Shown here: positions 18,671 to 63,087 of the stretch, piece by piece
Layout of the letters: each line of letters starts with the position of its first letter
Position numbering within the stretch: position 1 is the first letter of the stretch
Source of the DNA: Bacteroidota bacterium
GTDB taxonomy: Bacteria > Bacteroidota > Bacteroidia > CAILMK01
Assembly: GCA_036846145.1 (NCBI GenBank)
Contig: DAIUCM010000003.1
Location: 7,022 to 71,021, forward strand
Reading direction: 5' to 3'
DNA length: 64,000 nucleotides
The notes under the pieces: generated by a model
Seen by the model: only the letters and a program-made list of their open reading frames with translations
Databases searched by the model: none
What the model was told of the DNA's origin: nothing
Program-made: the position numbers and the translations under genes

Positions 18671-19948
18671 ATGATAGAAAAGCTCATTTCATGGTCCATT
18701 CATAACCGGTTTTTTGTATGGCTGGGGATTTTATTTATCATTATTGGTGGTATTTATTCTGTAAGCACTACCAATGTAGATGCCATCCCTGACCTTTCAG
18801 AGAACCAGGTAATTATATATACCGAATGGATGGGCCGTAACCCGCAGATCATGGAAGACCAGGTAACTTATCCACTGGTTTCCAATTTGCAGGGCATACC
18901 AAATATCAAAGCTATAAGAGCAAATTCCATGTTTGGCATGAGTTTTATCTTCGTTATTTTCCAGGATGATGTGGATATTTACTGGGCGCGTACGCGTGTA
19001 TTGGAACGGCTGAATTACGCACAGAGAGCTTTACCGGAAGGCATATCACCAACTCTTGGCCCTGACGGAACCGGCGTAGGTCATATTTTCTGGTACACAT
19101 TAGATGCAAAAGGTTATGATCTGGGTGAGCTACGTGCCTTGCAGGATTGGTATGTAAAATTCGCTTTGCAGAAAGTGGAAGGTGTAAGTGAAGTGGCATC
19201 ATTCGGTGGATTTCAGAAACAGTACCAGGTTGCGCTCGATCCGCATAAATTGGTGTATTATGGCATTTCCGTTATGCAGGTCGCCGATGTTCTTCGTGCA
19301 AGCAACCGTGAAGTCGGCGGTAGTTTGCTGGAAGTGAATGATGTGGGTCTGATGATACGCGGCCTTGGTTACATCAAAAGCATTGATGACATTAAGAACA
19401 TCTCGCTTGGGGAATACAAATCCATTCCGGTTACGCTGAAAGATGTTGCTTCTGTACAGATGAGCAGTGACATCAGGCTGGGAATTACGGAAGAAAATGG
19501 TAATGGTGAAGTTGTTGGCGGCATCATTGTAATGAGATACGGTGAAAACGCTAAAGAAGTCATTGACCGTGTAAAAGAGCGTATGAAAGATGTTCAGCGC
19601 GGTTTACCTGCTGGCGTTAAATTTAAAGTAGCTTATGATCGGAGCAACCTGATTGAAGCGGCCATTGCAACGCTGCGCGAAGCGCTGATCGAGGAGATTA
19701 TTGTCGTATCGCTGGTTGTTCTTGTTTTTCTTTTCCATGTGCGGAGCGCTATTGTAGCCATCGTAACCATACCTTTAGCGGTATTAATCGGATTTATTCT
19801 TATACGGTTATTTGATATTGATCTGAATATTATGACATTGGGTGGCATTGCGCTGGCTATTGGTGATTTGGTTGATGCAGGAATTGTAATGGTAGAAAAT
19901 ACATATCGCCAGCTTACGGATGCGGTGATTGAAAAAGAAGAGGTGTAA
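18671..19948 (+). CDS. cusA: CusA-family RND permease, N-terminal part (TM1, periplasmic domain 1, TM2-4)
   Basis: DAIPDLSENQVI, GPDGTGVG, SFGGF, IGDLVDAG.VMVEN. Confidence 0.88.
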   Translation: MIEKLISWSIHNRFFVWLGILFIIIGGIYSVSTTNVDAIPDLSENQVIIYTEWMGRNPQIMEDQVTYPLVSNLQGIPNIKAIRANSMFGMSFIFVIFQDDVDIYWARTRVLERLNYAQRALPEGISPTLGPDGTGVGHIFWYTLDAKGYDLGELRALQDWYVKFALQKVEGVSEVASFGGFQKQYQVALDPHKLVYYGISVMQVADVLRASNREVGGSLLEVNDVGLMIRGLGYIKSIDDIKNISLGEYKSIPVTLKDVASVQMSSDIRLGITEENGNGEVVGGIIVMRYGENAKEVIDRVKERMKDVQRGLPAGVKFKVAYDRSNLIEAAIATLREALIEEIIVVSLVVLVFLFHVRSAIVAIVTIPLAVLIGFILIRLFDIDLNIMTLGGIALAIGDLVDAGIVMVENTYRQLTDAVIEKEEV

Positions 19949-19949
19949 T

Positions 19950-21869
19950 ATGGCAAAAATAACAACCAAAACCCTCACCGAAACGGAACGCATAGAAATC
20001 ATTGAAAAATCCGCTCGAACTGTAGGTCGTGCCGTGTTTTTTTCCATATTAGTTACACTTGTTTCTTTCGCGCCCATTCTATTCCTGGAAGGCCAGGAAA
20101 AAAAGCTGTTCAGCCCGCTGGTCATAACCAAAACATTTACCATGATCGGTTCCGCATTGGTAGCTATACTTATTGTACCTATGCTGATGCGGACTTTCAT
20201 TAAAGGCAAGTTAATCCCCGAAAGTAAAAATCCTATTTCGCGCTTTTTTATCAGAATTTACAGCCCCATATTGCGCTGGTGTTTACATTTTAAAATGTTC
20301 ACCTTGGCCATCGCGCTGCTCATCTTCCTGGGAAGTATTCCGCTGTTGTTGAGGTTAGGCTCAGAGTTTATGCCGCCGCTGGATGAAGGAAGCCTTTTGT
20401 TTATGCCGGTTACTTTGCCTGATGTTTCCAATTCTGAAGCAAAAAGAATTCTCCAGGTGCAGGATAAAATCATAAAATCGGTACCTGAAGTGGAAAATGT
20501 TTTGGGCAAAGCCGGAAGAGCTTATACAGCTACAGATAATGCGCCTATGAGCATGATAGAAAGTATCATATTGCTAAAGCCAAGAGATCAATGGCGGCCA
20601 GGTTTGAGTAAGGAAGATTTAATCGCAGAACTGAACCAGAAAGTACAGATTCCCGGTGTAACCAATGGCTGGACGCAGCCTATCATCAACCGTATTAATA
20701 TGCTTTCTACCGGTATCCGTACCGATGTTGGAATAAAAGTTTATGGACAAAATTTAGATACGATTTATAACATATCCAGGGAAATTGAAAAAGCGCTTGA
20801 TGGGGTTTCCGGACTTGCAGATTTGTATGTCGAACAACTTACAGGCGGGAAATACCTGGACCTGCAACTTGACCGGGCAAAAATGCAGCGTTACGGGCTT
20901 ACAATAGATGATGTAAACATGGTTATAGAATCTGCCATAGGCGGAATGGTGGTTTCGCAAACAGTGGAAGGCAGGGAACGATTCAGTGTAAGTTTGCGCA
21001 TGGCGCAGGAATACAGAAATGATATTGATGCGCTGAAACGCATACCCGTACAAACACAAAACTTCGGCGCTGTGCCTTTATCAAGTATTGTTGATTTGAA
21101 AATCACAGAAGGCCCGCCAATGATAAGTTCCGAAGATGCCATGCTGCGAGGAACGGTACTTTTTAATGTGCGTGGCAGAGATATGGGCAGCGTGGTGAAT
21201 GACGCAAAAAAACGCATCGAAGACCATTTTAAACAATTGCCGCAGGGATATTATATCAACTGGAGCGGCCAATGGGAAAACCAGGTTCGCGCTACGCAAA
21301 GGTTAAAAATCATTATTCCTATCGTTCTGGTAATCATCGCTTTTATTCTGTATTTCACATTCAAATCGGCTACCGAAATGGCTATTGTATTGAGCAGCTT
21401 ACCCATTGCATTGATAGGTGGTGTATATTCACTCTATTTTTACGATGTGAACCTATCAGTTGCTGTTGCGGTAGGTTTTATCGCACTGTTTGGCGTGGCT
21501 GTAGAAACCGGTGTTCTGATGATTGTTTACATGAATGAATCCATCGGCAAACTCGCTGAGAATAAAGGAAATAACAGCCATAATATCCATAATGAAGATA
21601 TAAAACAGGCTGTTTTTGATGGCGCGGTATTAAGGGTTCGGCCAAAACTTATGACGGTAATGGCTGATATGTTTGGCTTGCTGCCTGTTTTGTTCGCGGT
21701 TGGCGTGGGCAGCGATGTTATGAAACCGATTACCATCCCATTCGTTTTTGGCCTTATTTCATCTACACTTTATGTATTGATTGTATTACCGGTAATTTAC
21801 CAGTATGTTAAAGAATATGAACTCCGTAAACATGGCAAGTTGCATTACCTCAAGGACTTAAATGATTAA
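19950..21869 (+). CDS. cusA: CusA-family RND permease, C-terminal part (TM5-12)
   Basis: ATG one base after the upstream TAA; EFMPPLDEGSLL, NGWTQPI..RI.MLSTG, RVRPKLMT. Confidence 0.88.
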   Translation: MAKITTKTLTETERIEIIEKSARTVGRAVFFSILVTLVSFAPILFLEGQEKKLFSPLVITKTFTMIGSALVAILIVPMLMRTFIKGKLIPESKNPISRFFIRIYSPILRWCLHFKMFTLAIALLIFLGSIPLLLRLGSEFMPPLDEGSLLFMPVTLPDVSNSEAKRILQVQDKIIKSVPEVENVLGKAGRAYTATDNAPMSMIESIILLKPRDQWRPGLSKEDLIAELNQKVQIPGVTNGWTQPIINRINMLSTGIRTDVGIKVYGQNLDTIYNISREIEKALDGVSGLADLYVEQLTGGKYLDLQLDRAKMQRYGLTIDDVNMVIESAIGGMVVSQTVEGRERFSVSLRMAQEYRNDIDALKRIPVQTQNFGAVPLSSIVDLKITEGPPMISSEDAMLRGTVLFNVRGRDMGSVVNDAKKRIEDHFKQLPQGYYINWSGQWENQVRATQRLKIIIPIVLVIIAFILYFTFKSATEMAIVLSSLPIALIGGVYSLYFYDVNLSVAVAVGFIALFGVAVETGVLMIVYMNESIGKLAENKGNNSHNIHNEDIKQAVFDGAVLRVRPKLMTVMADMFGLLPVLFAVGVGSDVMKPITIPFVFGLISSTLYVLIVLPVIYQYVKEYELRKHGKLHYLKDLND

Positions 21870-21872
21870 CCC

Positions 21873-23114
21873 ATGAAGTATTTTTTGAGCATAATATATA
21901 TGGGATTTGTGCTTCTATCGCTGCCGGTAAAAGCGCAGGATTCTGTACAAACACTCCGGGATATTTTAAGCAAAATAGAAACTGAATACCCGCAAGTATT
22001 GCAATATAACTCAAAAGTGGAAGCGCTGAAATACAGGGCGAAGGGATCAAAAAGCTGGATGCCACCAACGGTATCTTTTGGCGTGGACAGGTTTCCGTAT
22101 AATCCTATGATGCTGAGCGAGGAATCGCCGATGAACCAGGCGGGATTGATGTTTTCCGTTGAACAAATGTTTCCAATTCCATCGAAACAAAACGCAAAAA
22201 GCAGCTATTACAACGCGCTAACCAAAGTGGAAGAAAGCAACCAGGCCTGGACAAAAAATACGCTTCGTTTACAGGCGCGGTTATTTTATTACAACCAATA
22301 TGTTACACTCAGGAAACTTCAAATTCTAAATGAAAATGAATCGGTTATAAAGCTTTTTATAGAATCTGCCGAAGTGCGTTATGTGCATAACCAGGCGGAA
22401 TTGGGATCGGTTTTTAAAGCGAAAGCGCGGCTGGCTGAATTGCAAAACATGAAAACCATGCTTTATATGGCATTGGCTGAAAACCGTATCGGCATGAATA
22501 TTCTGCTGGGTAACCCAAGCGCAGATACATTAAAAATAGATACCTCGCAATATTCGGTTTCACTGATGCAATTTTCTGATACAAGTCTGGCTAACCGGAG
22601 CGATATTCAATCCATGACGAACATGATAAAAGCCATGGAAGAAGAGCGTAAATTGATGTCGCTGGGAAGAAAACCAGAATTTGGTGTTCGTTTCAATCAC
22701 ATGCAGATGTTTGGTATGCCCAACCAATATTCTGTAATGGGAATGATGACGATACCTATTGTGCCTTGGTCATCTGGAATGTACAAAAATGACGTTCTGG
22801 CCATGAATTCAGAAATAAAATCTACAGAATTTGAGCGTGAAAGTATGCAGCGCATGGCAACGCGCATGAGCCAGGAAAAAACCGCCATGCATTTCTACCA
22901 GAAGCAACAATTTCAGAATTATAACCAAAGCATAATTCCCGCTTACCGCAAAAACCTGGAAGCGAACCTGATTGCCTGGAAACAGAATACCGCCACCTTT
23001 TTTGTGCTGCTGGATAGTTGGGAAATGCTGCTGATGAAACAACTGGAAGCGGAAGACAAATTGCAGGAACTCTATAAATTACAGGCAGAGGTATTGTATG
23101 AACTGGAGAAATAA
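21873..23114 (+). CDS. TolC-family outer-membrane efflux protein, Met-rich
   Basis: Signal peptide, OEP helical repeats, position in cus operon. Confidence 0.8.
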   Translation: MKYFLSIIYMGFVLLSLPVKAQDSVQTLRDILSKIETEYPQVLQYNSKVEALKYRAKGSKSWMPPTVSFGVDRFPYNPMMLSEESPMNQAGLMFSVEQMFPIPSKQNAKSSYYNALTKVEESNQAWTKNTLRLQARLFYYNQYVTLRKLQILNENESVIKLFIESAEVRYVHNQAELGSVFKAKARLAELQNMKTMLYMALAENRIGMNILLGNPSADTLKIDTSQYSVSLMQFSDTSLANRSDIQSMTNMIKAMEEERKLMSLGRKPEFGVRFNHMQMFGMPNQYSVMGMMTIPIVPWSSGMYKNDVLAMNSEIKSTEFERESMQRMATRMSQEKTAMHFYQKQQFQNYNQSIIPAYRKNLEANLIAWKQNTATFFVLLDSWEMLLMKQLEAEDKLQELYKLQAEVLYELEK

Positions 23115-24333
23115 AATACCAATATACTTCCGGAAACACAAAGCATTTTTTACGCTTTGCATATATGGAATATTGCTTTTTACTGCCTGTAAAGAGCGCG
23201 ATGAACATGAAGGCCATTATACAGATTTAACGAAAAAAGAAAACCTTGATTCTCTGCTGGGAGAATTGAATGAAAATCCTAACCACACCGTAATTTCCTC
23301 GCAGCCCACAGTAAAAGTAACTGAAGGTGGCGGAAATACTTCAATAGCGCTAAATGGTATTATTGGCTTTGATGAGCGCCGCACAAACGTTGTTCCTGCG
23401 CGAATTGGCGGCAGAATTGAAGAAATTTATGTGCGGTATAATTACCAGTTCGTAACAAAAGGCCAGCCTGTTTTATCGGTTTACAGTCCAGAACTTAACA
23501 CTTACCTGGAACAGTATATCAATCTGTTTAAAGATGGCAATGACCAAAGGATGCTGAAATTAACTTTCGATAAATTGATCCTGCTTGGCTTAACAGAAGG
23601 TCAAATTCGGCAAATGGAAAAATCAGGAAAATTGCCGCGTAAAGTTGTTTTCTACTCACCGTACGCTGGTTATGTACGTTTGGAAAATAGCGCAACAGCA
23701 TCAATGAATAATCCATCATCATCTTCATCGTCAGATGAAATGGCTGGCATGGAAGCGCCTGGTGATCAAACTGATCAAAATTCAACAACAGGAAATATTC
23801 CTTTGCAGCCGGGCGTATATATACAAGAAGGGCAAACGCTTTTCTCTGTGAACGATATATCCCAGGTTTGGGCTATTTTGTCTGTTCCTGCTGAGTCGGT
23901 TTCCGCCTTAAAAATTGGATATCCGGTAACTTTACAGGTGGAAGGTTTCCGTGAAAAAATTCAGGGCAAAATAGATTTTATTGAACCTTTATTTTCCGTA
24001 AAAAGCCGGTTTAGCGGCGTACGTGTTTACCTTGATAATCCTGGAAAAAATCTGAAAATCAACAGCCTGGTAAGTGCGGAAATCAAAGCATTTTCAGCGG
24101 ATGGCATTTATGTACCTGCATCTGCCGTTTATAGTTTGGGGCGTGAAAAAATAGTCTGGCTAAAAACCGGCACACAGCATAACCAAAATATTTTTGGAGT
24201 GCGGAAAGTTAAAACCGGCGCAGAAGCGAATGGTAAAATACAAATAAAATCCGGCCTAAAACAAGGTGATGAAATTGCTGAGAACGCAGCGTATTTAATT
24301 GATAGTGAAGGCTTGATAAAACTTGAGCGATGA
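23098..24333 (+). CDS. CusB-like periplasmic adaptor 1 (lipoprotein)
   Basis: GRIEEIYV...V.KGQP...YSPEL; VPASAV; GL..GD.I...A.YLIDSE. Confidence 0.85.
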   Translation: MNWRNKIPIYFRKHKAFFTLCIYGILLFTACKERDEHEGHYTDLTKKENLDSLLGELNENPNHTVISSQPTVKVTEGGGNTSIALNGIIGFDERRTNVVPARIGGRIEEIYVRYNYQFVTKGQPVLSVYSPELNTYLEQYINLFKDGNDQRMLKLTFDKLILLGLTEGQIRQMEKSGKLPRKVVFYSPYAGYVRLENSATASMNNPSSSSSSDEMAGMEAPGDQTDQNSTTGNIPLQPGVYIQEGQTLFSVNDISQVWAILSVPAESVSALKIGYPVTLQVEGFREKIQGKIDFIEPLFSVKSRFSGVRVYLDNPGKNLKINSLVSAEIKAFSADGIYVPASAVYSLGREKIVWLKTGTQHNQNIFGVRKVKTGAEANGKIQIKSGLKQGDEIAENAAYLIDSEGLIKLER

Positions 24334-25541
24334 AAATCACAATTTACATATTGTTTATATTTATCATAACTGTTGTTCTTGCCAGCACTTATGGTTGTAA
24401 TTCTTCGAATGAACATGCAAATCACCAGTCTGAGGAAGTTTATACCTGCCCCATGCACCCCAGCGTAAGATCAGACAGGCCGGCGGCATGTCCTATTTGC
24501 GGAATGGACCTGGTAAAAATTACCGAGATGCCATCTGCCGATACACCCGGTGCTGAAAACGTTGTTTTCCTGATGCCGCGGCAGCAAATTCTTGCCAATA
24601 TCAAAACCGAAAAAGTGCAATACAGGGAAATTGGCGAGCATAATCTTTTACTTGGAACGGTGGCCGTTGATCCGCGCACAAGTACGGCAATTACAGCAAA
24701 AGTGCCGGGACGAATAGAAAAATTATACGTGAGAAATCCGCTGCAAAAAGTATTTTCCGGGCAACCTATATATGACATTTACAGCGAGGAATTATTGGTA
24801 GATCAGAAGGAATTTTTGCTAAGTTACGCGAAATGGAGATCAAATACTGATAATGAAACGCTGAAGCTGATGTACGAGGCTTCGAAAAACAAATTGCTGC
24901 TTTGGGGAATGAACCAGCCGCAAATCAACAACCTGGCAAATACGGGTAAAGCTGCCGCTACAACAACTTTTTATAGCCCTGAAAATGGCGTTTTACAAAG
25001 TAGTGAAATTAAAGAAGGGCAATATGTGCAGGCCGGCTCAACTATTGCCAGCATTACAAAACTTAGCAATATATGGGTGGAAGCGCAGGTTTACGCCGAA
25101 GAATTTTCGCTGTTGCAAAAAAATCCTGAAGTATTTATTGAAGCCGAAGCGCTCAACGAACCTATAAAAGGAAAACTGGTATTTGAAAATCCTTCTATTG
25201 AGGAAACTACCAGGCTTAACATTGCCAGGTTCCAGGTAGAAAACCCTGGTGGAAAATTACAGCCCAGCATGATGGTTTATGTCCGTTTGCAAAGTGCGGG
25301 TAAAAGAGGTTTGGTTATTCCAAAATCTGCACTTTTACCTGAAAAAATGCCAACGGTTTGGGTAAAAATTGGTGATGATGCCTTTGAACGGCGCATGGTA
25401 AAAACAGGAACTGGAAACCGCAGTTTTGTTGAGATTATTGAAGGCGTAAAAGAGAAAGAAAAAATAGTTGTTTCCGGTGCATATCTGATTAATAGTGAAT
25501 TCGTTCTGAAAAAAGGTGGGGCACAAAAACATAATCATTAA
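24330..25541 (+). CDS. CusB-like periplasmic adaptor 2 with N-terminal heavy-metal-binding domain
   Basis: YTCPMHP...CPICGMDL followed by adaptor core. Confidence 0.88.
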   Translation: MKITIYILFIFIITVVLASTYGCNSSNEHANHQSEEVYTCPMHPSVRSDRPAACPICGMDLVKITEMPSADTPGAENVVFLMPRQQILANIKTEKVQYREIGEHNLLLGTVAVDPRTSTAITAKVPGRIEKLYVRNPLQKVFSGQPIYDIYSEELLVDQKEFLLSYAKWRSNTDNETLKLMYEASKNKLLLWGMNQPQINNLANTGKAAATTTFYSPENGVLQSSEIKEGQYVQAGSTIASITKLSNIWVEAQVYAEEFSLLQKNPEVFIEAEALNEPIKGKLVFENPSIEETTRLNIARFQVENPGGKLQPSMMVYVRLQSAGKRGLVIPKSALLPEKMPTVWVKIGDDAFERRMVKTGTGNRSFVEIIEGVKEKEKIVVSGAYLINSEFVLKKGGAQKHNH

Positions 25542-25567
25542 TATTTCATCAAAATAAAATATATAGC

Positions 25568-25601
25568 TGACAAAAGTCATCACTTTAATTGACTATCATC
25601 A
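25568..25601. promoter_or_regulatory. Tandem FNR/CRP-like boxes (TGAY-N4-RTCA), 22 bp apart
   Basis: TGACAAAAGTCA 25568-25579; TGACTATCATCA 25590-25601. Confidence 0.55.
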
Positions 25602-25649
25602 GGTTAATTCTACGCAATTTGTTAGAAGTTGCAATGAATTTCAAACCTG

Positions 25650-26519
25650 ATGAAACATTTCAAAAATAATATTTCCGTTACAAAAGCTTCCGGCAGATCA
25701 GAGCCTTTCGATATTGAAAAATTAATTCGCTCCCTTTCAAAATCCGGCGCTAATAAAGATGAAATAAATGCCGTTATCAAGGAAATTGAGCCATTTTTAC
25801 ATCCCGGAATAAAAACAAAAAAAATATACAAACTCGCTTATAAAATACTTCGCAATATTGCTAAACCCGTTGCCGGAAAATATAAACTTAAAGCTGCCAT
25901 CATGGAGCTTGGGCCTTCCGGTTATCCATTTGAACGTTTTGTTGCAGCTATTTTAAATCACCAGGGCTTTGTAACCCAAACCGGCGTTATTGTACAGGGG
26001 AAATGTGTAAAACATGAGATCGATGTTATCGCTGAAAAAGATGATAAACATTTCATGATAGAATGTAAATATCATAACCAGCTTGGCACGGTAAGCGATG
26101 TAAAAATTCCTTTATATATCAATTCACGCTTTAAAGATGTGGAAGCAAGCTGGGTGAAATTACCAGGGCATGATGTAAAACTGCACCAGGGCTGGGTTGT
26201 AACAAACACAAAATTCAGTTCCGATGCTATACAATACGGCAATTGTGCAGGCTTGCATTTGGTAGGCTGGGATTATCCGCATAAGAATAGTTTGAATGTG
26301 CAAATTGAACGTTTAGGCTTATACCCAATTACATGCCTCACAACCTTAACCAAAAGCGAAAAACACAGGCTGCTGGAAAATAAAATTGTATTGTGCAGCG
26401 AAATCTGCGCAAATCCAATATTCCTGAAAGATGCCGGCGTCAGCGATCAGCGAATGAATAGCGTTCTAAATGAAGGAAAGTCACTTTGCCAGTCGAACTC
26501 AAACCATTTCCACAGCTAA
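25650..26519 (+). CDS. ATP-cone domain fused to an Mrr-like PD-(D/E)XK nuclease domain
   Basis: N-terminal V.K.SG..E.FD.EKL..SL ATP-cone; FE...HEIDVIA...IECKYH nuclease motif. Confidence 0.82.
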   Translation: MKHFKNNISVTKASGRSEPFDIEKLIRSLSKSGANKDEINAVIKEIEPFLHPGIKTKKIYKLAYKILRNIAKPVAGKYKLKAAIMELGPSGYPFERFVAAILNHQGFVTQTGVIVQGKCVKHEIDVIAEKDDKHFMIECKYHNQLGTVSDVKIPLYINSRFKDVEASWVKLPGHDVKLHQGWVVTNTKFSSDAIQYGNCAGLHLVGWDYPHKNSLNVQIERLGLYPITCLTTLTKSEKHRLLENKIVLCSEICANPIFLKDAGVSDQRMNSVLNEGKSLCQSNSNHFHS

Positions 26520-26525: not shown

Positions 26526-29150
26526 ATGTACCACTCCATTACAATAGAGCAGGCCGCGCAAAAGTTAAATGCTGATTTAGAAAAAGGTTTAACCCATAAA
26601 GAAGCGGCGCAAAGGCTGGAAAAATATGGCTCTAATTTAATTACCCAAGGTTCTATTCGCAGCGCCTGGCAAATTTTGCTAAGCCAGTTTAAAAGCCCTA
26701 TTGTTTATTTACTGCTTTTTGCAACGGCGGTTTCATTCTGGTTCCAGGAATGGCTCGATGCTTCTGCCATTTTGGTTGTGTTGTTTGTTAATTCCATTAT
26801 TGGTTTTTACATGGAATACAGGGCGCAAAAATCCATGCTCTCGCTCAGGCGCCTGTCTTCTGTTTTAGTAAAAGCATTTCGCGACGGTAAAATATATGAG
26901 ATAAACTCTGATGATATTGTGCCCGGCGATGTTGTGTTTGTAGAAGCCGGCGATGTAATTCCGGCAGATACCAGGATTATACGATCTGCGCAGCTATTAA
27001 TAGATGAATCTGCATTAACAGGCGAATCCGTTCCCGTAGAAAAATCACAAGGCATATTAAATGAAAATACAATACTTGCGGAACGCACAAACAGCGCTTA
27101 CAAAGGAACGCATGTATCCAAAGGCAACGCTTACTTGCTTGTACATTCTACAGGTATGAATACTGAATTAGGCGCCATTGCAAACCTTGTCCAATCATCA
27201 GAACAGGCCGCCACGCCGCTCGAAAAAAAACTGGAAGACTTCAGTAAAAAACTTATAAAGATTACTGTCGCGCTTGTTGTCATAATATTGATAGCAGGAT
27301 TTATAAACGGCCAGAATTTCCTGGAAATGCTGGAAACTTCCATCGCTTTGGCGGTTGCTGCCATTCCTGAAGGCTTACCTATTGTAGCCACTTTAGCGCT
27401 TGCCCAAGGCATGTTAAAAATGGCGCAGTATAATGTGATCGTTAAAAAGCTTTCAGCGGTGGAAACACTTGGCGGAACAAACATAATATGTACCGACAAA
27501 ACAGGAACACTAACCCAGAATAAAATGGAAGTGGTTTTTATAGCCATGCCCGGTGAAAACTATTGGAAGAAAGAAGAAGAATTTACAGGTAATAAAGAAA
27601 TCATAGATGAAGTAATAAACTGTTCCGCGCTATGTAATACGGCGCAGGTTTATAAAGAAGAAAACCAGCTTAAAGAATCCGGCGATCCTCTTGAAATTGC
27701 TTTACTGCGTTGGGTAATTGACCAAAAACACGATATAGCTGAAATCCGTAATAACTTCCCAAAAAAGGATGAAGAGCCATTCAACAGTGAAACCAGAATT
27801 ATGGCAACGCTTCATCAAAAACAGGACAAATATTATGTTTATGCAAAAGGTGCGGCGGAAGAACTTTTGCTGAAATGTACCCATATATGGCATAACGAAA
27901 AAATGCTTTTAGATGAAGCTGCGAGAGAAAAATGGCTGATGAAAGCGCAGGAATATGCAGCTTCCGGACAGCGCCTTGTTGCTTTGGCTTATAGTGAAAA
28001 TGAAACGGAACCGAATGTATTAACTGAAAATCTGACCTTCCTGGGACTTGTTGGTATGATTGATCCGCCGAGGCCGGAAGTATTACAAGCCATAGCTGAT
28101 TGTAAAACCGCTGGAATAAAGGTGGTTATGATAACCGGCGATCATCCTTCTACCGCACAATATATCGGTAACCATTTAGGTATTTCAAAAGCTGAGGAGA
28201 AACCCATTACCGGTAAGGGTATGAAAGAATATGCTTCGTTAAACGATGAAGATAAAAAGCTGTGGCTCAGCACTTCTGTTTTTGCCCGTGTAAATCCCAA
28301 ACATAAACTCGACCTTGTTAGTGTTTTCCAGGAAAAAGGTTTTATTGTAGCCATGACCGGTGACGGAGTTAACGATGCGCCGGCACTCAAAAAGGCAGAT
28401 ATAGGTATAGCTATGGGGCAAAAAGGCACCCAGGTTGCACAGGAAGTAGCTGATATGGTTTTACAGGATGATTCTTTTTCTTCCATAGCTGTAGCTATCC
28501 GCCAGGGCAGAATTATTTTTGACAATATTAAAAAGTTCGTAACATTTCTTCTTTCGTGCAATTTAAGTGAACTGCTTGTGGTTGCGGCAGCGGCGGTATT
28601 AAACCTTCATTTCCAGCTAATTCCATTACAGATTTTATTCATAAACCTTATTACTGATGTTCTTCCCGCGCTTGCATTAAGCCTTACAAAAGGCAACAGC
28701 AACATCATGCAACAAAAACCAAGAAACACGGCGGAACCAATCATCAATTCCAGGCGATGGAAAATTATCTTCTTCTATGCTTTCGTTATTGCTTCAGCCA
28801 GTATTGCAGCAGTATTTTTCAATCATTATGTATATCATAAAAATAATGCCTGGGATGTTACGATGTGCAATAATATATTGTTTTTCACACTTATTTTCAG
28901 CCAGTTATTCCACGTGTTCAATATGGGCGATGGGCCATTTTATAACAATGAAGTAATAAAGAACAGCTACGTGTGGTACGCAACAACGGCTAATATTTTA
29001 ATTCTGATTATAGTGTTGAAAATTCCATTTGCACGGCAGACATTGGGCATAATTCTTATGACATGGGCTGAGTGGAAAATAATACTTACTGCTTCATTCG
29101 GATCAGTCTTTATCATCCAGTTGATCAAATCACTAAAAATCCTGAAATAA
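26526..29150 (+). CDS. Cation-translocating P2A-type (Ca2+-like) P-type ATPase
   Basis: TGES, IPEGLP, CTDKTGTLT, KGAAE, TGDGVNDAPAL, NLITD.LPALAL. Confidence 0.9.
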   Translation: MYHSITIEQAAQKLNADLEKGLTHKEAAQRLEKYGSNLITQGSIRSAWQILLSQFKSPIVYLLLFATAVSFWFQEWLDASAILVVLFVNSIIGFYMEYRAQKSMLSLRRLSSVLVKAFRDGKIYEINSDDIVPGDVVFVEAGDVIPADTRIIRSAQLLIDESALTGESVPVEKSQGILNENTILAERTNSAYKGTHVSKGNAYLLVHSTGMNTELGAIANLVQSSEQAATPLEKKLEDFSKKLIKITVALVVIILIAGFINGQNFLEMLETSIALAVAAIPEGLPIVATLALAQGMLKMAQYNVIVKKLSAVETLGGTNIICTDKTGTLTQNKMEVVFIAMPGENYWKKEEEFTGNKEIIDEVINCSALCNTAQVYKEENQLKESGDPLEIALLRWVIDQKHDIAEIRNNFPKKDEEPFNSETRIMATLHQKQDKYYVYAKGAAEELLLKCTHIWHNEKMLLDEAAREKWLMKAQEYAASGQRLVALAYSENETEPNVLTENLTFLGLVGMIDPPRPEVLQAIADCKTAGIKVVMITGDHPSTAQYIGNHLGISKAEEKPITGKGMKEYASLNDEDKKLWLSTSVFARVNPKHKLDLVSVFQEKGFIVAMTGDGVNDAPALKKADIGIAMGQKGTQVAQEVADMVLQDDSFSSIAVAIRQGRIIFDNIKKFVTFLLSCNLSELLVVAAAAVLNLHFQLIPLQILFINLITDVLPALALSLTKGNSNIMQQKPRNTAEPIINSRRWKIIFFYAFVIASASIAAVFFNHYVYHKNNAWDVTMCNNILFFTLIFSQLFHVFNMGDGPFYNNEVIKNSYVWYATTANILILIIVLKIPFARQTLGIILMTWAEWKIILTASFGSVFIIQLIKSLKILK

Positions 29151-30578
29151 ATGGCAACCACACAAACCAGTCTGCAATTTCTCGGCGCTGCGGGTACAGT
29201 AACTGGGTCTAAATACCTTTTGTCAATTGACGGATATAACATACTTATTGATTGCGGCCTCTTCCAGGGCGAAGATGAAAAACAGCACAATGAAAATGCC
29301 CTACGATCTCTCCCGCAAAATGTAGATTGCGTGTTGCTGACACATGCGCATCTGGACCATACCGGATTTTTACCCATGCTGATAAAAAAAGGCTTTACAG
29401 GAAAAGTTTACGGTACGAAGCCAACGCTTGAAATAACAGAAATTATTTTAAATGACAGCGCAAAAATTGCTGAAGAGGAATTAAAGCTATCCAGAAAGCA
29501 TCATAACAAGAAGCATAATAAACCGCTGCCGGATGATGAACCCTGGAAGTACGATCGTGAATTAGTGGATGCTACAGTCAAGTTGTTTTCCCCGGTAGAT
29601 ATAAACGAATGGATTTCAATTACTGATCATATTAAAGTTCGTTTCAGGTACAATGGCCATATTATAGGTGCTACTTTCATTGAAATAAATATTGATGGTA
29701 AAACAATTGTTTTTTCCGGAGACATTGGACGGCAAAACGATTTCCTTCTTTTTCCGCCGCAACAGCCTGAAAAGGCCGATATATTGATAATAGAATCTAC
29801 TTATGGCGACCGCAATCATCCAGATGATGTGGAAGGCCAGATTGAAAACCTGCTCATAGAGGCTTCAAAGCGAAATGGAACTATCATAATACCCAGTTTT
29901 GCGGTTGAACGTATGCAAATGCTGATGTATGTTTTATGGCAGATGCGTACGAAGGATAAAATCCCGAATATTCCTATTTACATGGATAGCCCGATGGGGA
30001 AAAATGTGCTTGAAATCTTCCATCATAATAATACCTGGCATAAGCTGCAACCAGAACTATGCACCCAAATGTGCGAGAATATAAAACTTGTAAGAACCGT
30101 ACAGGAAACTTATGAACTGGTAGATGACAAACGGCCTAAAATAATAATTGCAGGAAGCGGAATGGTTACCGGCGGCAGGGTTTTGACCTATTTGCAGTAT
30201 TATATACAGGACCCTTCCACAACTATTTTGCTGGCCGGATTCCAGGCGGAAGGCACTAATGGCAGGTTGTTACAGGAAGGCGTAAAAGAATTGCAGATAC
30301 GGGATAAATTATGTGCTGTAAACGCCACTGTTCACAGTATAGAAGGATTATCCGGCCACGCAGGTCAGGATGAACTGATAAATTGGATGAACAAGCTCGA
30401 AAAAATGCCAGAGAAAATATTTATCACGCATGGTGAAACCCCATCGAGAATGGGGCTGAAAGATAAGATTTTTGAAGTGTATGGCACAAACAGTGAAATA
30501 CCGCAAATAAACGAATGCGTTGAATTATTTAACCATGCGCATATAAAGGTTGATGAAAAAATGCTTACTGATCACTAA
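29151..30578 (+). CDS. MBL-fold beta-CASP nuclease (Ysh1/TTHA0252-like)
   Basis: LGAAGTVTGS, DCG, THAHLDH, GHIIGA, SGD, ESTYG, AGSGM..GGR, SGHA, HGE. Confidence 0.9.
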   Translation: MATTQTSLQFLGAAGTVTGSKYLLSIDGYNILIDCGLFQGEDEKQHNENALRSLPQNVDCVLLTHAHLDHTGFLPMLIKKGFTGKVYGTKPTLEITEIILNDSAKIAEEELKLSRKHHNKKHNKPLPDDEPWKYDRELVDATVKLFSPVDINEWISITDHIKVRFRYNGHIIGATFIEINIDGKTIVFSGDIGRQNDFLLFPPQQPEKADILIIESTYGDRNHPDDVEGQIENLLIEASKRNGTIIIPSFAVERMQMLMYVLWQMRTKDKIPNIPIYMDSPMGKNVLEIFHHNNTWHKLQPELCTQMCENIKLVRTVQETYELVDDKRPKIIIAGSGMVTGGRVLTYLQYYIQDPSTTILLAGFQAEGTNGRLLQEGVKELQIRDKLCAVNATVHSIEGLSGHAGQDELINWMNKLEKMPEKIFITHGETPSRMGLKDKIFEVYGTNSEIPQINECVELFNHAHIKVDEKMLTDH

Positions 30579-30589: not shown

Positions 30590-31346
30590 ATGGAAAAAAT
30601 TTATGAAGGAAAAGTAGCCATTGTAACCGGTGGGTCTTTTGGTATTGGAAGGGCAACTGCTGTTGCATTTGCAAAGCGCGGTGCAAAGGTTGTAGTGGCC
30701 GATTATGTTGATGGCAGCGAAACCATGCAGCTATTAAGCGATATAAAAGCTGAAAGCATTTTTGTCCATTGTGATATATCGAAAGAAGGGGATGAAAAAA
30801 AATATGGTGTCACAGACTATTGAAAAATTTGGACGCTTAGATTTTGCTTTTAATAATGCAGGGGTTGAAGGTATTTCCGGCAGCACACACATATGCACTG
30901 AAGAAAACTGGGATCGTACAATGAATGTAAATCTGAAAGGCAACTGGCTCTGTATGAAGTATGAAATACCTGAAATATTAAAACAGGGAAAGGGCGCAAT
31001 TGTAAACAATGCTTCCATTGCAGGTTTAGTTGGTTTCCAGGGGGTACCGGCCTACGTGGCAAGTAAACATGGGTTGGTAGGCTTAACAAAAACTGCCGCA
31101 CTTGAATACGCAAAGCAAAATATCCGTATAAATGCCATTTGCCCAGGCGTAATAAAAACCCCAATGATAGACCGGGCCACAGGGAAAGTTAAAGAAGTGG
31201 AGAAAGCCTTTGAGAATATGGAACCTATTGGCAGAATGGGGCAACCGGAAGAAGTTGCAGAGCTTGCAATATTTTTATGTTCTGATGCTTCATCTTTTAT
31301 TACAGGCGGAGCCATACCAGTGGATGGCGGCTGGGTTGCGCAATAA
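30590..31346 (+). pseudogene. Classical SDR oxidoreductase, frameshifted at an A8 run (30795-30802)
   Basis: TGGSFGIG in ORF 30590-30823; NNAG, YVASK, NAICPG, PVDGG in ORF 30762-31346; removing one A fuses them. Confidence 0.85.
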
Positions 31347-31482: not shown

Positions 31483-32589
31483 ATGAAAAAGAATGGCAGA
31501 GTTACAAATTTCTGTAACGCGTGGTTTGGCAAGGCATTACTTATCATAATCCTTGCAGGTTTTACATGGGCCTGTCAAAAAGATGCTCCAGCCGATGATC
31601 CTAAGACAACAGCACTTAAAAAAGTAGTTTATGTTGCTGATGAAGATGACGGTACAATCACGGTTATCAACGCTGAAAGTAAAGCCAAGATAAAAATAAT
31701 TGATTTGTCTTATAATGGTGAAATGTACATGCCTCATAATGTACAGGTGGCGCCGAATGGCAAAACGGTTTGGGTTACCTGCGTACCAATGCAGGAAGGC
31801 TCAGATGAATTTGTAGCAGTAATTGATGCGGTTCAAAACACTGTTATAAAGCATATTAATGTTGGAAAAGAGCAGCATATTGCGCATGTTGTATTAGATG
31901 ATGAGTCGAAATTCGCTTATGTAACCGGAAATGAAAGTAACCAGGTTATTAAACTTGACGCGGATTCGCTGAAAGAAGTAAGGCGCTTTGAAATTGGTGA
32001 CAACCATAAACCGCACGGTATGCGCTACTATAACCATCAACTATTTATTGCGAATATGGATGGCAAAAGCATGAGCATACTGGATATTAACACAGGACAA
32101 ATAAATGAGATACAATTAGGTGGAGTTGCAGTACAAACTGCCATAACACCCAATGGCGCTTATGCTTTCGCATCTTTATATGATACACGGGAAGTTGCAG
32201 TGTATAACATCCAAACCCAAAACCTCACTAAAGTAAAACTGCCAGAAGGGTCACAAGGGCCAATTCAATTATATCCTACTCCTGACAATAAAATGGTTTA
32301 TGTGTGCGACCAGGGTGTGCTTGAAAATCGTTCGGCATCCAACAAAGTTTATGTGCTTGATATTGAAATGGGCATGATAGATAAAACAATTACGGTTGGT
32401 AACGGCGCGCATGGCATTGTGATCTGCAACCAGGGCACACAAGCCTATGTAACTAACAGTAAGGATAATACAATCTCAATTATTGACCTACAGACAAATT
32501 CTGTTACACAAACTTTGCCCGTGGGTAAAGCGCCAAATGGTATCAGCTTCTGGTTTTCTTCAAACGGAAATATTGGCGGCATGAAGTAA
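31483..32589 (+). CDS. YncE/YVTN-type beta-propeller lipoprotein
   Basis: Lipobox TWAC; seven blades with YV.N/D...TI..ID and VG..P.G motifs. Confidence 0.85.
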   Translation: MKKNGRVTNFCNAWFGKALLIIILAGFTWACQKDAPADDPKTTALKKVVYVADEDDGTITVINAESKAKIKIIDLSYNGEMYMPHNVQVAPNGKTVWVTCVPMQEGSDEFVAVIDAVQNTVIKHINVGKEQHIAHVVLDDESKFAYVTGNESNQVIKLDADSLKEVRRFEIGDNHKPHGMRYYNHQLFIANMDGKSMSILDINTGQINEIQLGGVAVQTAITPNGAYAFASLYDTREVAVYNIQTQNLTKVKLPEGSQGPIQLYPTPDNKMVYVCDQGVLENRSASNKVYVLDIEMGMIDKTITVGNGAHGIVICNQGTQAYVTNSKDNTISIIDLQTNSVTQTLPVGKAPNGISFWFSSNGNIGGMK

Positions 32590-32610
32590 TTTCCGGCTTA
32601 TGTATATATG

Positions 32611-32633
32611 GGGCAGCTTCGGCTGCCCTTTTT
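32611..32633 (+). terminator. Rho-independent terminator
   Basis: GGGCAGC-TTCG-GCTGCCC followed by a T-tract. Confidence 0.9.
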
Positions 32634-40809: not shown

Positions 40810-40912
40810 AGCCCATGCTTTACAAAATAAAAGCATTTTTTGACCAAAGCACATATGAAAGCCCAATGGTCAAATTCTTTTAAACATTAATAAAAATTAT
40901 TAAAAATTTATA

Positions 40913-49956: not shown

Positions 49957-49998
49957 AAATAAAGCCGCACCCCATATATACAATATTAAAAAAATGCT

Positions 49999-62835: not shown

Positions 62836-63087
62836 TTTCAATGGGTGACGATACAACAAAGAAATAAAAAATGCAGCAAAACACCAAGCTTTTAACGGCT
62901 TATAAATTATTCGTTTTCAATAACTGCCATACTAAAATACCAATATAAGGAGTTTACATAACTAATGCTGCAGGCTCCATATATTACTAAGTCCAAAAAT
63001 GCTTTGGCATACACTATGTGGATATCTTGGGCATTTTATGGTTTTCGCTGTGTAAAAATTTGGTTCACATTCCACCATTGCTTAGCC

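Follow-up and report, generated by a model that had tools for sequence, protein, structure and literature searches.

Within the 64,000-nucleotide stretch of Bacteroidota DNA analyzed here (hereinafter the window), one gene codes for a protein in which an ATP-cone precedes a PD-(D/E)XK nuclease (hereinafter ACN, for ATP-cone nuclease, used for both gene and protein; Table 1). To our knowledge, experiments have shown ATP-cones only as the switch that controls ribonucleotide reductases and NrdR, the repressor of the reductase genes; the locus hence raises the question of whether such a cone might also control a nuclease, and in what biological setting. We find that the three-domain architecture of ACN is real and that its family is a conserved chromosomal one with a non-defence distribution. 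As to function, we tentatively read ACN, with confidence a little short of even, as a putative adenine-nucleotide-gated endonuclease, which would lie outside restriction-modification (R-M) and the known defence systems and would act in a stress and nucleotide-salvage program.

Domain architecture of ACN

An earlier note on this DNA had described an N-terminal ATP-cone joined to a nuclease and a short C-terminal helical domain, and each of the three was recovered by Pfam above its gathering cut-off: ATP-cone (PF03477) over residues 9-71 at 30.8 bits (E 4e-7; cut-off 25.8), Mrr_cat over residues 90-144 at 31.9 bits (E 1.6e-7; cut-off 21) and AF1548-like_C over residues 225-278 at 30.9 bits (E 3e-7; cut-off 23.9); a search of NCBIfam with the same protein returned no model. 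The confident AlphaFold2 model (pLDDT 91.3, pTM 0.86), Foldseek and hhalign agree on an ATP-cone and an AF1548-type nuclease. In the model, the N-terminus displays, at pLDDT >90, the β-hairpin followed by a four-helix bundle characteristic of the ATP-cone fold (strands 9-11 and 17-19; helices 22-31, 36-49, 56-70 and 72-78). Foldseek matched this region to the ATP-cones of E. coli NrdA and NrdR (for NrdR, 9gex, rmsd 1.9 Å over 80 columns), and a profile of it aligned with residues 49-142 of E. coli NrdR in hhalign (probability 94%, E 1.2e-7). The boundary of the cone, at about residue 70, was set from the cone that ACN has in common with a glucoamylase fusion of Fodinibius (see below).

The remainder of the protein is closest to AF1548 of Archaeoglobus fulgidus (PDB 1Y88), a structural-genomics protein without an assigned function that comprises Pfam Mrr_cat and AF1548-like_C domains (ACN residues 96-279, E 1e-36, 38% identity; Foldseek with nuclease and tail, E 1.8e-16). 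The two share the nuclease core, the C-terminal helical domain and the predicted catalytic D, E and K, whereas the ATP-cone is absent from AF1548. The tail of ACN, modeled at pLDDT 83, drew weak but consistent Foldseek matches to BAF, the N-terminal domain of RadA/Rad51, the RNA polymerase α-CTD and domain 5 of Hel308; a Pfam search of it to an E of 10 gave AF1548-like_C alone and no HhH family. With 1Y88 presumably classed in SCOP as 'RuvA domain 2-like', the modeled tail is probably an (HhH)2-type module for non-specific DNA binding.

Table 1. Features of ACN and of its neighborhood in the window
Feature	Coordinates	Strand	Evidence and remarks
Heavy-metal RND efflux genes, co-directional, upstream of ACN	18671..25541	+	Pfam
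108-nt spacer 5′ of ACN	25542..25649	.	No terminator predicted
ACN gene: ATP-cone, PD-(D/E)XK nuclease, AF1548-like C-terminal domain	25650..26519	+	289 aa, ATG to TAA
ATP-cone domain, about residues 9-72 (V10, K12, G15, E18, F20, K24, T56)	25674..25865	+	Pfam, hhalign, Foldseek, conservation
Linker helix (Y78, L80, K81, G88-P89-x-G91) and PD-(D/E)XK core	25866..26279	+	
Codon of E95	25932-25934		
Codon of D125 (in H122-E123-x-D125)	26022-26024		
Codon of E138	26061-26063		
Codon of K140	26067-26069		
C-terminal helical domain, AF1548-like_C	26280..26492	+	Pfam, domain model, Foldseek
P2-type (Ca2+/Mg2+-like) cation P-type ATPase	26526..29150	+	Pfam, NCBIfam; starts 6 nt past the ACN stop
β-CASP metallo-β-lactamase ribonuclease (TTHA0252/CPSF type)	29151..30578	+	Pfam; PDB 2DKF, E 4e-72
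Short-chain dehydrogenase, frameshift near 30760-30823	30590..31346	+	Not conserved with ACN
β-propeller protein (31483-32589), then hairpin and T-run (32610-32629)	31483..32629	+	
F390-synthetase-related (PaaK-like) adenylate-forming enzyme	33181..34524	+	End overlaps the start of the following gene; at other loci not conserved with ACN
Archaeal-type nucleoside/nucleotide phosphorylase, AMP-phosphorylase-like	34521..36011	+	PDB, NCBIfam
Ribose-phosphate diphosphokinase (PRPP synthase)	36012..36884	+	Closest solved relative PDB 1U9Y

Conservation of catalytic and nucleotide-contact residues

We examined conservation in a sample of 144 diverse ACN homologues (36-57% identity to the window protein). 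The E...D...ECK motif (E95, D125, E138-C139-K140), previously noted as intact in the single protein, is kept nearly without exception, with E95, E138 and K140 found in 143/144 homologues and D125 in all 144; E123 is likewise retained in 143/144, and R160, D163 and N186 of the nuclease core are invariant too. Poor conservation of the catalytic residues had been named beforehand as an outcome that would tell against a nuclease; they are essentially invariant, and that objection therefore falls away. D125, E138 and K140 correspond to D38, E51 and K53, the predicted catalytic residues of AF1548 (PMC1821046; its residue numbers differ from the PDB chain index of the 1Y88 alignment by a constant 13). 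A survey of the PD-(D/E)XK superfamily places 1Y88 with Mrr_cat (PMC3424549), and ACN falls in this Mrr_cat/AF1548 group both by its above-threshold Mrr_cat score and by its closeness to this solved relative.

For the cone, NrdR provides the reference: mutation of its V48, K50, E56 or K62 impairs nucleotide binding, and F58 sits in the adenine-recognition loop (PMC9110341). The equivalents in ACN are V10, K12, E18, F20 and K24, of which four are well conserved among the 144 homologues (I/V10 in 139, K12 in 142, F/Y20 in 144, K24 in 140); E18, which corresponds to E56 of NrdR, is retained in just 95, which counts against gating. A nucleotide-switched nuclease would nonetheless be the most economical reading of ACN on these sequences, because all three domains are real and the residues of both the catalytic site and the cone are kept.

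A large chromosomal family

The fusion had been taken for an unusual one; instead, it typifies a family of more than 1,200 clusters at 50% identity with one fixed architecture, whose members already bear labels such as 'ATP cone domain-containing protein', 'restriction endonuclease' and 'Holliday junction resolvase'. The ATP-cone/nuclease combination is thus already catalogued but functionally unstudied: our literature search found no functional study of ACN members, of AF1548 or of an ATP-cone with a restriction endonuclease, none tying an ATP-cone to a P-type ATPase or AMP phosphorylase, and no biochemical or genetic data for any member of the family. The labels 'restriction endonuclease' and 'Holliday junction resolvase' on ACN genes are without support.

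The 120 closest homologues, mainly from Bacteroidota, are 60-67% identical and share a single length and architecture. In tblastn searches, ACN had no match in 50,697 phage records and two in 72,556 plasmids. In CPR bacteria it is core-like and lies within conserved housekeeping arrays (e.g., YceG, MnmA and ACN, followed by IF-1 and ribosomal protein genes). A candidate cone-less bacterial subfamily (P0246, 211 aa) was rejected as a mis-called start, because the protein most similar to it is full-length, has the cone and is 85% identical. The cone itself occurs in a second setting: Fodinibius salipaludis encodes a glucoamylase fused to a cone that is 56% identical over 68 residues (E 3e-25), its gene lying two genes downstream of an ACN homologue. 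Judged by sequence, the ACN-type cone is a portable module.

Gene neighborhoods of ACN

We next considered the genomic context. The hairpin with a T-run behind the β-propeller gene is the first terminator-like one in the ACN gene run (Table 1). The phosphorylase encoded further downstream is closer to archaeal enzymes (PDB 4GA5/4GA4, E 3e-91) than to pyrimidine nucleoside phosphorylases (about 1e-30), and scored 537.6 bits against TIGR02645, the broader model for phosphorylases of the archaeal type (cut-off 434.6), and 453 bits against the AMP_phos equivalog TIGR03327 (cut-off 535); we take 4GA5 to be the AMP phosphorylase of T. kodakarensis.

At 26 of 83 loci a β-CASP RNase gene directly follows ACN, at 14 a P2-ATPase gene and at 3 a P1B-ATPase gene, and overlaps of 4-41 nt are common. 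In Bacteroidota, translation of ACN is usually coupled to that of a P-type ATPase or β-CASP RNase gene, and genes for an AMP-phosphorylase-like enzyme and PRPP synthase often come next. Within 8 kb of ACN, β-CASP, AMP-phosphorylase-like and PRPP synthase genes were found at 45, 31 and 29 of 82 loci, respectively. The block of ACN, metallo-β-lactamase (MBL), phosphorylase and PRPP synthase recurs on a Pontibacter plasmid and in Criblamydia (Chlamydiota), where it adjoins genes for phosphoketolase, glycogen phosphorylase, acetate kinase and glucoamylase. In Bradyrhizobium, the trio of MBL, PRPP synthase and phosphorylase forms a FixK2-dependent operon induced by microoxia (PMC6515984, PMC9104804). 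This linkage is not obligate, the CPR homologues having no β-CASP, phosphorylase or PRPP synthase neighbors. Across phyla, the most recurrent neighbors of ACN belong to metal homeostasis (P1B/P2 ATPases, CusABC, CsoR, YHS and multicopper oxidase). The efflux set upstream of ACN in the window comprises a CusA-like pump split between two ORFs, one outer-membrane factor and a pair of CusB/HlyD adaptors, of which one carries an HMBD, and the order RND, OEP, MFP, MFP, ACN, P-type ATPase recurs in Terrimonas sp. R1 (L003) and at a further locus (L001).

ACN had also been proposed to head a box-regulated unit, for which we obtained no support: we found no repeated or conserved box in the spacer 5′ of ACN by comparison within the window or with 74 orthologous upstream regions. 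The spacer holds a single FNR/FixK-like match at 7/8 positions (TTGACTATCATCAG, 25589-25602); the window holds no excess of TTGA-N6-TCAA (37 occurrences versus 47.6 expected), and the pattern, with at most one mismatch, is present in only 13 of the 74 orthologous regions. The palindrome TGAC-N4-GTCA was not above chance (1 match versus 0.4 expected), nor were any k-mers, exact or with two mismatches, common to the spacer and other intergenic regions. Enrichment analysis of k-mers and gapped palindromes across the 74 regions returned only A/T runs, and Rfam had no family matching anywhere in the window.

Regulator, repair nuclease or restriction enzyme

The absence of a box bears on the first alternative, namely that ACN is an NrdR-like transcriptional regulator, with a cone that senses ATP/dATP or energy charge and nuclease-fold and HhH parts that only bind DNA, repressing or activating adjoining operons (P-type ATPases, nucleotide-salvage genes). 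NrdR sets a precedent, having an ATP-cone together with a DNA-binding domain, and the cones are homologous, with the K/E/F/K contact positions kept and a nucleic-acid-binding output in both. ACN is, moreover, typically the first gene, overlapping varied cargo (P2 ATPase, P1B ATPase, β-CASP or ABC-3 transporter), and a position at the head of an operon, in overlap with a P-type ATPase gene, is shared by metal-responsive repressors; CadC, CsoR and ArsR are local repressors at the head of metal operons. Unlike in NrdR, however, the cone is N-terminal rather than C-terminal, and it starts at residue 9, which leaves no room for the Zn-ribbon that carries the RRRR DNA-binding motif of NrdR; we found no nrd genes nearby, no NrdR boxes and no repeated box. 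The output module differs too, being a nuclease that is catalytically intact by its residues, with an HhH-like tail: the full E, D and ExK set persists in 143-144 of the 144 homologues, whereas nuclease folds that only bind usually lose it. With no conserved palindrome in the 74 upstream regions, with HhH modules contacting the backbone non-specifically, and with a Kaiserbacteria operon that is already headed by a CsoR-type repressor and has ACN in mid-operon, we regard a regulator as unlikely.

Somewhat less probable still is a DNA repair or recombination nuclease (a structure-specific, Hjc/Mrr-like resolvase or nickase) that is tied to the dATP/ATP ratio and acts after oxidative, metal or hypoxic DNA damage. 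Its attraction lies in a weak Pfam likeness to Hjc, the archaeal resolvase of Holliday junctions (E 0.006), in the name 'Holliday junction resolvase' that several sources give to homologues, in an (HhH)2-like tail resembling the DNA-binding modules of RadA/Rad51 and Hel308, in the core-like status of ACN in reduced CPR genomes, and in SOD, AhpC and copper-resistance genes among its neighbors. The Hjc score is nevertheless under the Pfam cut-off, and RecA, Ruv, Uvr or ligase genes are not recurrent beside ACN at any inspected locus; its links are to transporter and nucleotide-metabolism genes.

The gene had further been cast as a restriction-like nuclease short of its methylase. The missing methyltransferase is true locally, the nearest methylase being hsdM (40913-42331), 14 kb off and part of a complete type I system that lies 12 kb downstream of ACN; the implied link to restriction does not stand, the family behaving as a conserved chromosomal gene and not as a defence gene. 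No methyltransferase adjoins an ACN homologue at any annotated locus inspected, and those within about 4 kb of homologues are PEMT/ICMT and UbiE/SAM-type only, none being DNA methylases. ACN lacks an adjacent DNA methylase in its operon and at the inspected loci as well as a reader domain, Pfam revealing no Mrr_N or other modification reader, and it does not show the patchy, mobile, defence-island-associated and fast-evolving distribution of defence genes. In PADLOC-DB 2.0.0 there was no full-length match, only partial ones over residues 90-145 (E 6e-6 to 5e-3). An origin in defence or mobile elements was rejected on the phage and plasmid tblastn searches and PADLOC.

ACN does share with the Mrr-family type IV endonucleases an Mrr_cat-type core, a D...(E/Q)xK motif and independence from a cognate methylase, and differs from them in the lack of the Mrr_N winged-helix, in its metabolic/transport operon context and in its absence from phages and defence islands. 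A stand-alone type IV (modification-dependent, Mrr-like) restriction enzyme or anti-phage effector, its cone sensing a phage-induced change in dNTP/ATP, is very improbable: Mrr_cat as the top Pfam family for the core, the weak PADLOC matches to CARF-PD-DExK and the ZorD Mrr-like nuclease, the structural likeness to MspJI, Can2 and Cdn1 and the type I system in the window are outweighed by the 60-67% identity among the closest homologues, unlike that of fast-evolving defence genes, by the want of Mrr_N or any other specificity domain, by the phage and plasmid counts above, by neighbors that are metabolic, transport or housekeeping genes and not defence islands, and by the type I system being unlinked to ACN at other loci.

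A candidate adenylate-gated nuclease in nucleotide salvage

For the gated endonuclease that we favor, what the ligand is, which way the switch works, whether DNA or RNA is the substrate and what part the enzyme plays in a pathway are all inferred, along these lines. The N-terminal cone would bind ATP, dATP or other adenylates, as it does in ribonucleotide reductase and NrdR, and binding would alter the oligomeric state or domain packing, switching the Mg2+-dependent PD-(D/E)XK site (E95, D125, E138 and K140) on or off, while the (HhH)2-like tail would grip the nucleic-acid backbone irrespective of sequence. ACN would be part of a stress or energy-limitation program, co-expressed in Bacteroidota and Chlamydiota with the β-CASP RNase, the AMP-phosphorylase-like enzyme, PRPP synthase and, often, a P-type ATPase. 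Its initial endonucleolytic cuts may create 5′-phosphate ends from which the β-CASP exonuclease could release 5′-nucleotides, to be salvaged or catabolized by the phosphorylase and PRPP synthase; the cone would thereby tie nucleic-acid turnover to the adenylate or dATP pool. This model does not explain the recurrent metal-homeostasis neighbors, and the (HhH)2-type tail suggests duplex DNA, at odds with an RNase-like β-CASP partner.

Parts of this scheme have parallels in known systems. The cones of class I/III ribonucleotide reductases have the same fold by Foldseek and presumably the same logic of adenine-nucleotide switching via oligomerization; in ACN the attached enzyme is instead a nuclease, and its cone subfamily is also found on a glucoamylase. 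In Can2, Card1, Cdn1 and Cap4 of CRISPR type III and CBASS, too, a small-nucleotide sensor is fused to a PD-(D/E)XK nuclease, and these nuclease domains are structural neighbors that share the motif region with ACN (PADLOC CARF_PDDEXK, E 6e-6). ACN differs from them in having an ATP-cone and not CARF or SAVED as its sensor, in having no cyclase or CRISPR genes nearby and in its presumed ligand, a primary metabolite and not a second messenger.

A third parallel is the archaeal NMP-degradation (pentose bisphosphate) pathway, with its CPR version, in that the ACN-linked phosphorylase is closest to the AMP phosphorylase 4GA5. That pathway consists of AMP phosphorylase, R15P isomerase and type III RuBisCO, and we know of no nuclease gatekeeper described for it. 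Neither R15P isomerase nor RuBisCO was found in the window or at the inspected ACN loci. According to two reports, the pathway begins with nucleotides freed from nucleic acids (PMC9700705, PMC5113843). One may speculate, though we consider it doubtful, that the cone subfamily is a portable sensor of energy charge or dATP that gates hydrolases of polymer reserves. It would sit on the nuclease ACN and, in at least one genome, on a glucoamylase, both in a widespread low-oxygen/stress island, and ACN, β-CASP, phosphorylase and PRPP synthase would form an adenylate-switched pathway of four enzymes by which bacteria convert nucleic acid to pentose phosphate or nucleotides, analogous to the archaeal one.

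If gating is borne out, ACN would be the first enzyme other than those of ribonucleotide reduction to be controlled by an ATP-cone, and the switch would extend to a nuclease and, via the sister fusion, to a glycoside hydrolase, making the cone a general metabolite-sensing module for degradative enzymes. It could explain how nucleic-acid turnover is coupled to energy or dNTP status in hypoxia, starvation and metal stress, and would assign a function to the β-CASP/phosphorylase/PRPP synthase operon, known only as a FixK2/microoxia-induced unit. ACN lends itself readily to biochemistry and may repay the effort, because the family is large, is retained in minimal CPR genomes and has a close solved relative in AF1548 (1Y88). 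As a further observation, the structural neighbors of its nuclease domain include the ligand-gated effectors Cdn1 and Can2, which we count in favor of gating.

Domain architecture, fold, and conservation of the ATP-cone nuclease

Profile searches of the predicted ATP-cone nuclease (hereinafter ACN) against Pfam recovered three domains (table below). The archaeal protein AF1548 (PDB 1Y88; solved but uncharacterised) aligns to residues 96-279 (E 1e-36) and, unlike ACN, has no ATP-cone. An AlphaFold2 model of ACN, obtained with 119 homologues, is confident overall (pLDDT 91.3, pTM 0.86); in Foldseek searches the nuclease and tail matched 1Y88 (E 1.8e-16), the N-terminus matched the ATP-cones of E. 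coli NrdA and NrdR (NrdR 9gex: rmsd 1.9 Å over 80 columns), and the core resembled further PD-(D/E)XK nucleases, namely Cdn1, Can2, MspJI, and the R2 endonuclease. Likewise, an hhalign comparison aligned residues 49-142 of E. coli NrdR with the N-terminal profile of ACN (probability 94%, E 1.2e-7). The ATP-cone, the intact E...D...ECK nuclease, and the C-terminal helical domain that an earlier note had read from the sequence are thus borne out far beyond chance, also by the AlphaFold check of the domains that it had suggested. The motif corresponds to E95, D125, and E138-C139-K140, of which D125, E138, and K140 are the counterparts of AF1548 D38, E51, and K53, predicted to be catalytic (PMC1821046).

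When modeled alone (pLDDT 83), the tail again matched 1Y88 and gave weak, consistent matches (E 0.4-4, TM about 0.55) to BAF, the RadA/Rad51 N-terminal domain, the RNA polymerase alpha-CTD, and Hel308 domain 5. All of these are non-sequence-specific DNA-backbone binders of the helix-hairpin-helix (HhH) type. Pfam detects no HhH family in the tail by sequence; its modeled fold is probably that of an (HhH)2-like DNA-binding domain.

A word-indexed protein search with ACN returned at least 7,715 significant matches among 8,000 candidates, the best 120 being 60-67% identical and 281-363 aa long (only two fall outside 281-304). Among 50%-identity representatives, an exhaustive search counted 1,233 clusters with E <= 1e-3, of which 462 reached E <= 1e-30; almost all measure 270-300 aa and align over their full length. 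ACN is a typical member of a big, catalogued, and functionally unstudied family: RefSeq already names these proteins 'ATP cone domain-containing protein', other sources use 'restriction endonuclease', 'ATPase', or 'Holliday junction resolvase', and no label rests on experiment. The cone is essentially always present in bacterial members; a 211-aa homologue considered as a cone-less bacterial form was rejected as a mis-called start.

Residue conservation was counted in 144 representatives with 36-57% identity to the ACN of the window. The nuclease core is retained almost without exception (E95 143, H122 138, E123 143, D125 144, E138 143, K140 143, R160 144, D163 144, and N186 143 of 144), as are most cone residues (I/V10 139, K12 142, G15 141, E18 95, F/Y20 144, K24 140). 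In the NrdR alignment these six cone positions equate to Streptomyces NrdR V48, K50, G53, E56, F58, and K62. Nucleotide binding by that protein is impaired when V48, K50, E56, or K62 is mutated, and F58 belongs to the loop that recognizes adenine (PMC9110341). The earlier note had staked its reading on catalytic residues being conserved among homologues; since both these (E95, D125, E138, and K140 in 143-144 of 144) and most of the cone residues are conserved, the reading is not overturned on this count and nucleotide binding by the cone is plausible.

Six cysteines (C119, C139, C199, C229, C249, and C280; window 26004-26489) are invariant in an alignment of 21 close homologues, with C119 and C199 each kept in 135 of the 144 diverse members. 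They may point to a metal site or a redox switch, notable given the copper/zinc gene neighbors.

Gene context in the window

Features of ACN, its surroundings in the window, and related loci
Feature	Position	Remarks
ATP-cone	ACN residues 9-71	E 4e-7, above curated cut-off (Pfam)
Mrr_cat (PD-(D/E)XK nuclease family)	ACN residues 90-144	E 1.6e-7, above curated cut-off (Pfam)
AF1548-like_C	ACN residues 225-278	E 3e-7, above curated cut-off (Pfam)
Heavy-metal RND efflux cluster	18671-25541	Co-directional with ACN, upstream
ACN	25650-26519 (+)	ATG to TAA, 289 residues
P2-type cation ATPase	26526-29150	Starts 6 nt past ACN stop
beta-CASP RNase, TTHA0252/CPSF type	29151-30578	PDB 2DKF, E 4e-72
Short-chain dehydrogenase, frameshifted	30590-31346	After beta-CASP gene
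beta-propeller gene, then first terminator-like hairpin	hairpin 32610-32629	Downstream of short-chain dehydrogenase
F390-synthetase-related adenylate-forming enzyme	33181-34524	
Archaeal-type, AMP-phosphorylase-like phosphorylase	34521-36011	
PRPP synthase	36012-36884	Closest solved relative 1U9Y
Minor-neighbor genes	L093 9282-9617; L097 10961-11542; L092 8301-8972; L097 4596-5252; window 7353-7943	L-numbers are homologue loci
Bipartite motif, example copies	8339-8365(-), 21876-21902(+), 24748-24774(+), 43601-43627(+), 49973-49999(-), 52257-52283(+), 53916-53942(+), 56907-56933(+)	

The spacer between the RND cluster and ACN is 108 nt long and holds no predicted terminator. Farther downstream, the phosphorylase has 4GA5 as its best solved relative (E 3e-91, versus ~1e-30 for ordinary pyrimidine nucleoside phosphorylases) and scores above the TIGR02645 cut-off and below the AMP_phos equivalog cut-off. 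The short-chain dehydrogenase has its N-terminal 64 residues in 30590-30823 and the remainder in another frame at 30762-31346, and may be either a pseudogene or a sequencing error.

The rest of the window's first 25 kb forms an island of metal-homeostasis genes, which includes two P1B ATPases, DUF305, DUF3347, and a second RND system. In the RND cluster upstream of ACN, the CusA-type pump consists of two overlapping ORFs (18671-19948 and 19929-21869; about 425 and 646 aa) that cover model positions 2-415 and 417-1020; because the identical split recurs in unrelated genomes (loci L001 and L002), it is a genuine two-gene pump and not a frameshift. At the window edge, the C-terminal end of an RND pump (ACR_tran positions 866-1020) and an OEP outer-membrane efflux domain share a single ORF, 43-1803, which reflects a gene fusion or else a stop that was missed. 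A giant ORF (49999-62859, - strand; 4,286 aa) contains internal DNA repeats spaced about 250 and about 540 nt (families D5 and D12).

Gene neighborhoods across phyla

A genome scan provided 80 ACN loci, nearly all labelled Bacteroidota, and two other contigs brought these to 82. Within 8 kb of ACN, a beta-CASP gene occurs in 45 of them, an AMP-phosphorylase-like gene in 31, PRPP synthase in 29, and a P2-ATPase sharing at least 50% identity with that of the window in 18, always on the same strand as ACN. With plasmid, Chlamydiota, and Patescibacteria (CPR) loci added, 83 loci had enough downstream sequence to identify the next gene: it codes for a beta-CASP RNase in 26, a P2-ATPase in 14, and a P1B-ATPase in three. 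The ACN stop and the next start commonly overlap by 4-41 nt, indicating translational coupling.

ACN occurs in a block with the beta-CASP metallo-beta-lactamase RNase (MBL), phosphorylase, and PRPP synthase genes on a Pontibacter plasmid and on a plasmid of Criblamydia sequanensis (Chlamydiota; 49% identity), the latter block being flanked on one side by CusA, a P-type ATPase, phosphoketolase, and glycogen phosphorylase, and on the other by acetate kinase and glucoamylase. The three partners form a module conserved from Bacteroidota to Chlamydiota (window 29151-30578 and 34521-36884; L083, L084), whose biochemical role is apparently undescribed in the literature. In Bradyrhizobium diazoefficiens the operon bll3117-bll3116-bll3115 encodes the phosphorylase, PRPP synthase, and MBL; it is induced by microoxia at the transcript and protein levels and requires the CRP/FNR-type regulator FixK2, on which phosphoketolase-acetate kinase and RND efflux components also depend (PMC6515984; PMC9104804). 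Hence, in at least one well-studied bacterium the ACN partners belong to a low-oxygen/energy-limitation program; ACN itself was not found in B. diazoefficiens.

Much of the family's diversity lies in Patescibacteria (Paceibacteria, Nomurabacteria, Yonathbacteria, Kaiserbacteria, and Nealsonbacteria), in two settings. One is housekeeping, exemplified by the conserved array LeuRS, sigma factor, DUF8128, YceG, MnmA, a 154-aa protein, ACN, IF-1, S13, S11, S4, and RpoA. The other is metal/stress-related: CsoR, PEMT, DUF2933, AAA_28, ACN, an 83-aa protein, an HMBD-P1B ATPase, HPF, and multicopper oxidase, with further operons combining YHS, CzcB, MacB, ACN, and SOD, or CSD, ACN, a Zn/Mn-type ABC transporter, and HPF. 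In two further lineages ACN directly precedes or follows P-type ATPases and CusABC. P-type ATPases and metal-homeostasis genes are the most general ACN association across phyla, and the beta-CASP/phosphorylase/PRPP synthase link is restricted to Bacteroidota and Chlamydiota. Several minor neighbors also recur across phyla, namely the S30AE/HPF ribosome hibernation factor, a PEMT/ICMT-type membrane methyltransferase, an AAA_28 P-loop protein, MgtC, and DUF5676; they may point to a common island for stress or dormancy.

A second carrier of the cone: a putative glucoamylase

In Fodinibius salipaludis (Balneolota; NSKE01000005.1, L092 10194-11729), two genes downstream of ACN, we found a 511-aa protein fusing an ATP-cone (30.3 bits, above cut-off) to a putative glucoamylase (PF10091, E 4e-86). 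Its cone is 56% identical to that of the same genome's ACN over 68 residues (E 3e-25) and matches the ACN cone profile with a probability of 99.3%; the catalytic portion shares 61% identity with the cone-less ortholog in the Criblamydia island. The cone is therefore a self-contained module ending near residue 70. One predicted sensor would thus be attached to two different polymer-degrading hydrolases within one gene neighborhood, which is the best indirect evidence that the cone may serve as a regulatory input and not as a structural part of the nuclease.

Predicted function

ACN combines a cone bearing ligand-contact residues, an intact Mg2+-type PD-(D/E)XK site, and a probable backbone-binding tail, and shares operons with a beta-CASP enzyme of the 5'-exo/endo-RNase type and with enzymes for nucleotides and ribose phosphates. 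The nucleotide-switched nuclease at the core of the earlier note is a reasonable inference, and we tentatively favor a nucleotide-gated nuclease of a chromosomal stress/salvage program. Binding of an adenine nucleotide to the cone would change oligomerization or packing and so gate cleavage; endonucleolytic cuts by ACN would leave 5'-phosphate ends, which the beta-CASP enzyme might degrade to 5'-NMPs for salvage or catabolism by the phosphorylase and PRPP synthase. The route could be used according to ATP or dATP status, for example, in hypoxia, starvation, or CPR nucleotide scavenging. This full pathway is doubtful as a whole, and the model leaves the recurrent tie to P-type ATPase and copper/zinc genes unexplained. 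That tie, together with the first-in-operon position of ACN, keeps alive an NrdR-like regulator, on balance an unlikely alternative. A repair nuclease tuned by dATP/ATP is less likely than the regulator.

Least probable is a type IV or other defense enzyme: tblastn found no ACN homologues among 50,697 phage records and just two among 72,556 plasmids, PADLOC gave only partial matches over the nuclease motif, Pfam detected no Mrr_N or other specificity domain, and defense genes never adjoin ACN in the loci inspected. The earlier note was locally correct that a cognate methylase is missing: the nearest lies in a complete type I system (hsdR, hsdM, hsdS; 38407-43665), which begins 1.5 kb beyond the PRPP synthase gene and is unlinked to ACN in other genomes. 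Nevertheless, the uniform length and high identity of ACN across Bacteroidota are the opposite of the restriction-enzyme pattern, and the lack of phage matches and the non-defense neighbors speak against a restriction nuclease missing its methylase; nor is ACN, as a member of a big family, a one-off oddity. In the literature searched, no ATP-cone is described as controlling anything beyond ribonucleotide reduction, which makes ACN moderately to highly interesting.

Upstream region and a bipartite repeat

The earlier note had placed ACN in a 'box-regulated unit', a claim that found no backing. Matches between the 108-nt spacer and other intergenic regions do not exceed A/T-rich chance; TGAC-N4-GTCA is unique; a FixK-like TTGACTATCATCAG at 25589 (7/8) gains no support from enrichment or orthologues; 74 orthologous upstream regions share no common motif; and an Rfam scan of the window returned no family.

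The bipartite motif AAGYATTTT-N10-TATATATG is strongly over-represented in the window, with 36 copies at <= 3 mismatches, eight of them perfect (expectation 1.8; maximum 7 in 100 shuffles). Both strands carry copies, and these fall in genes as well as in non-coding DNA; inside genes most share one reading frame, and those within the giant ORF are mostly antisense to it. One copy with a T5 run (30754-30780) sits exactly at the short-chain dehydrogenase frameshift, and none lies in the spacer upstream of ACN. The exact motif is absent from 96 loci; with mismatches allowed, it stays at background level in 1.44 Mb of loci gathered ahead of a metagenome scan, mostly Bacteroidota (23 matches). It is dense in metagenome Ga0157371 (14 matches in 9.9 kb, on five unrelated, non-overlapping short contigs) and looks like a lineage-specific genomic signal, whose architecture and density, speculatively, recall DNA-uptake sequences.
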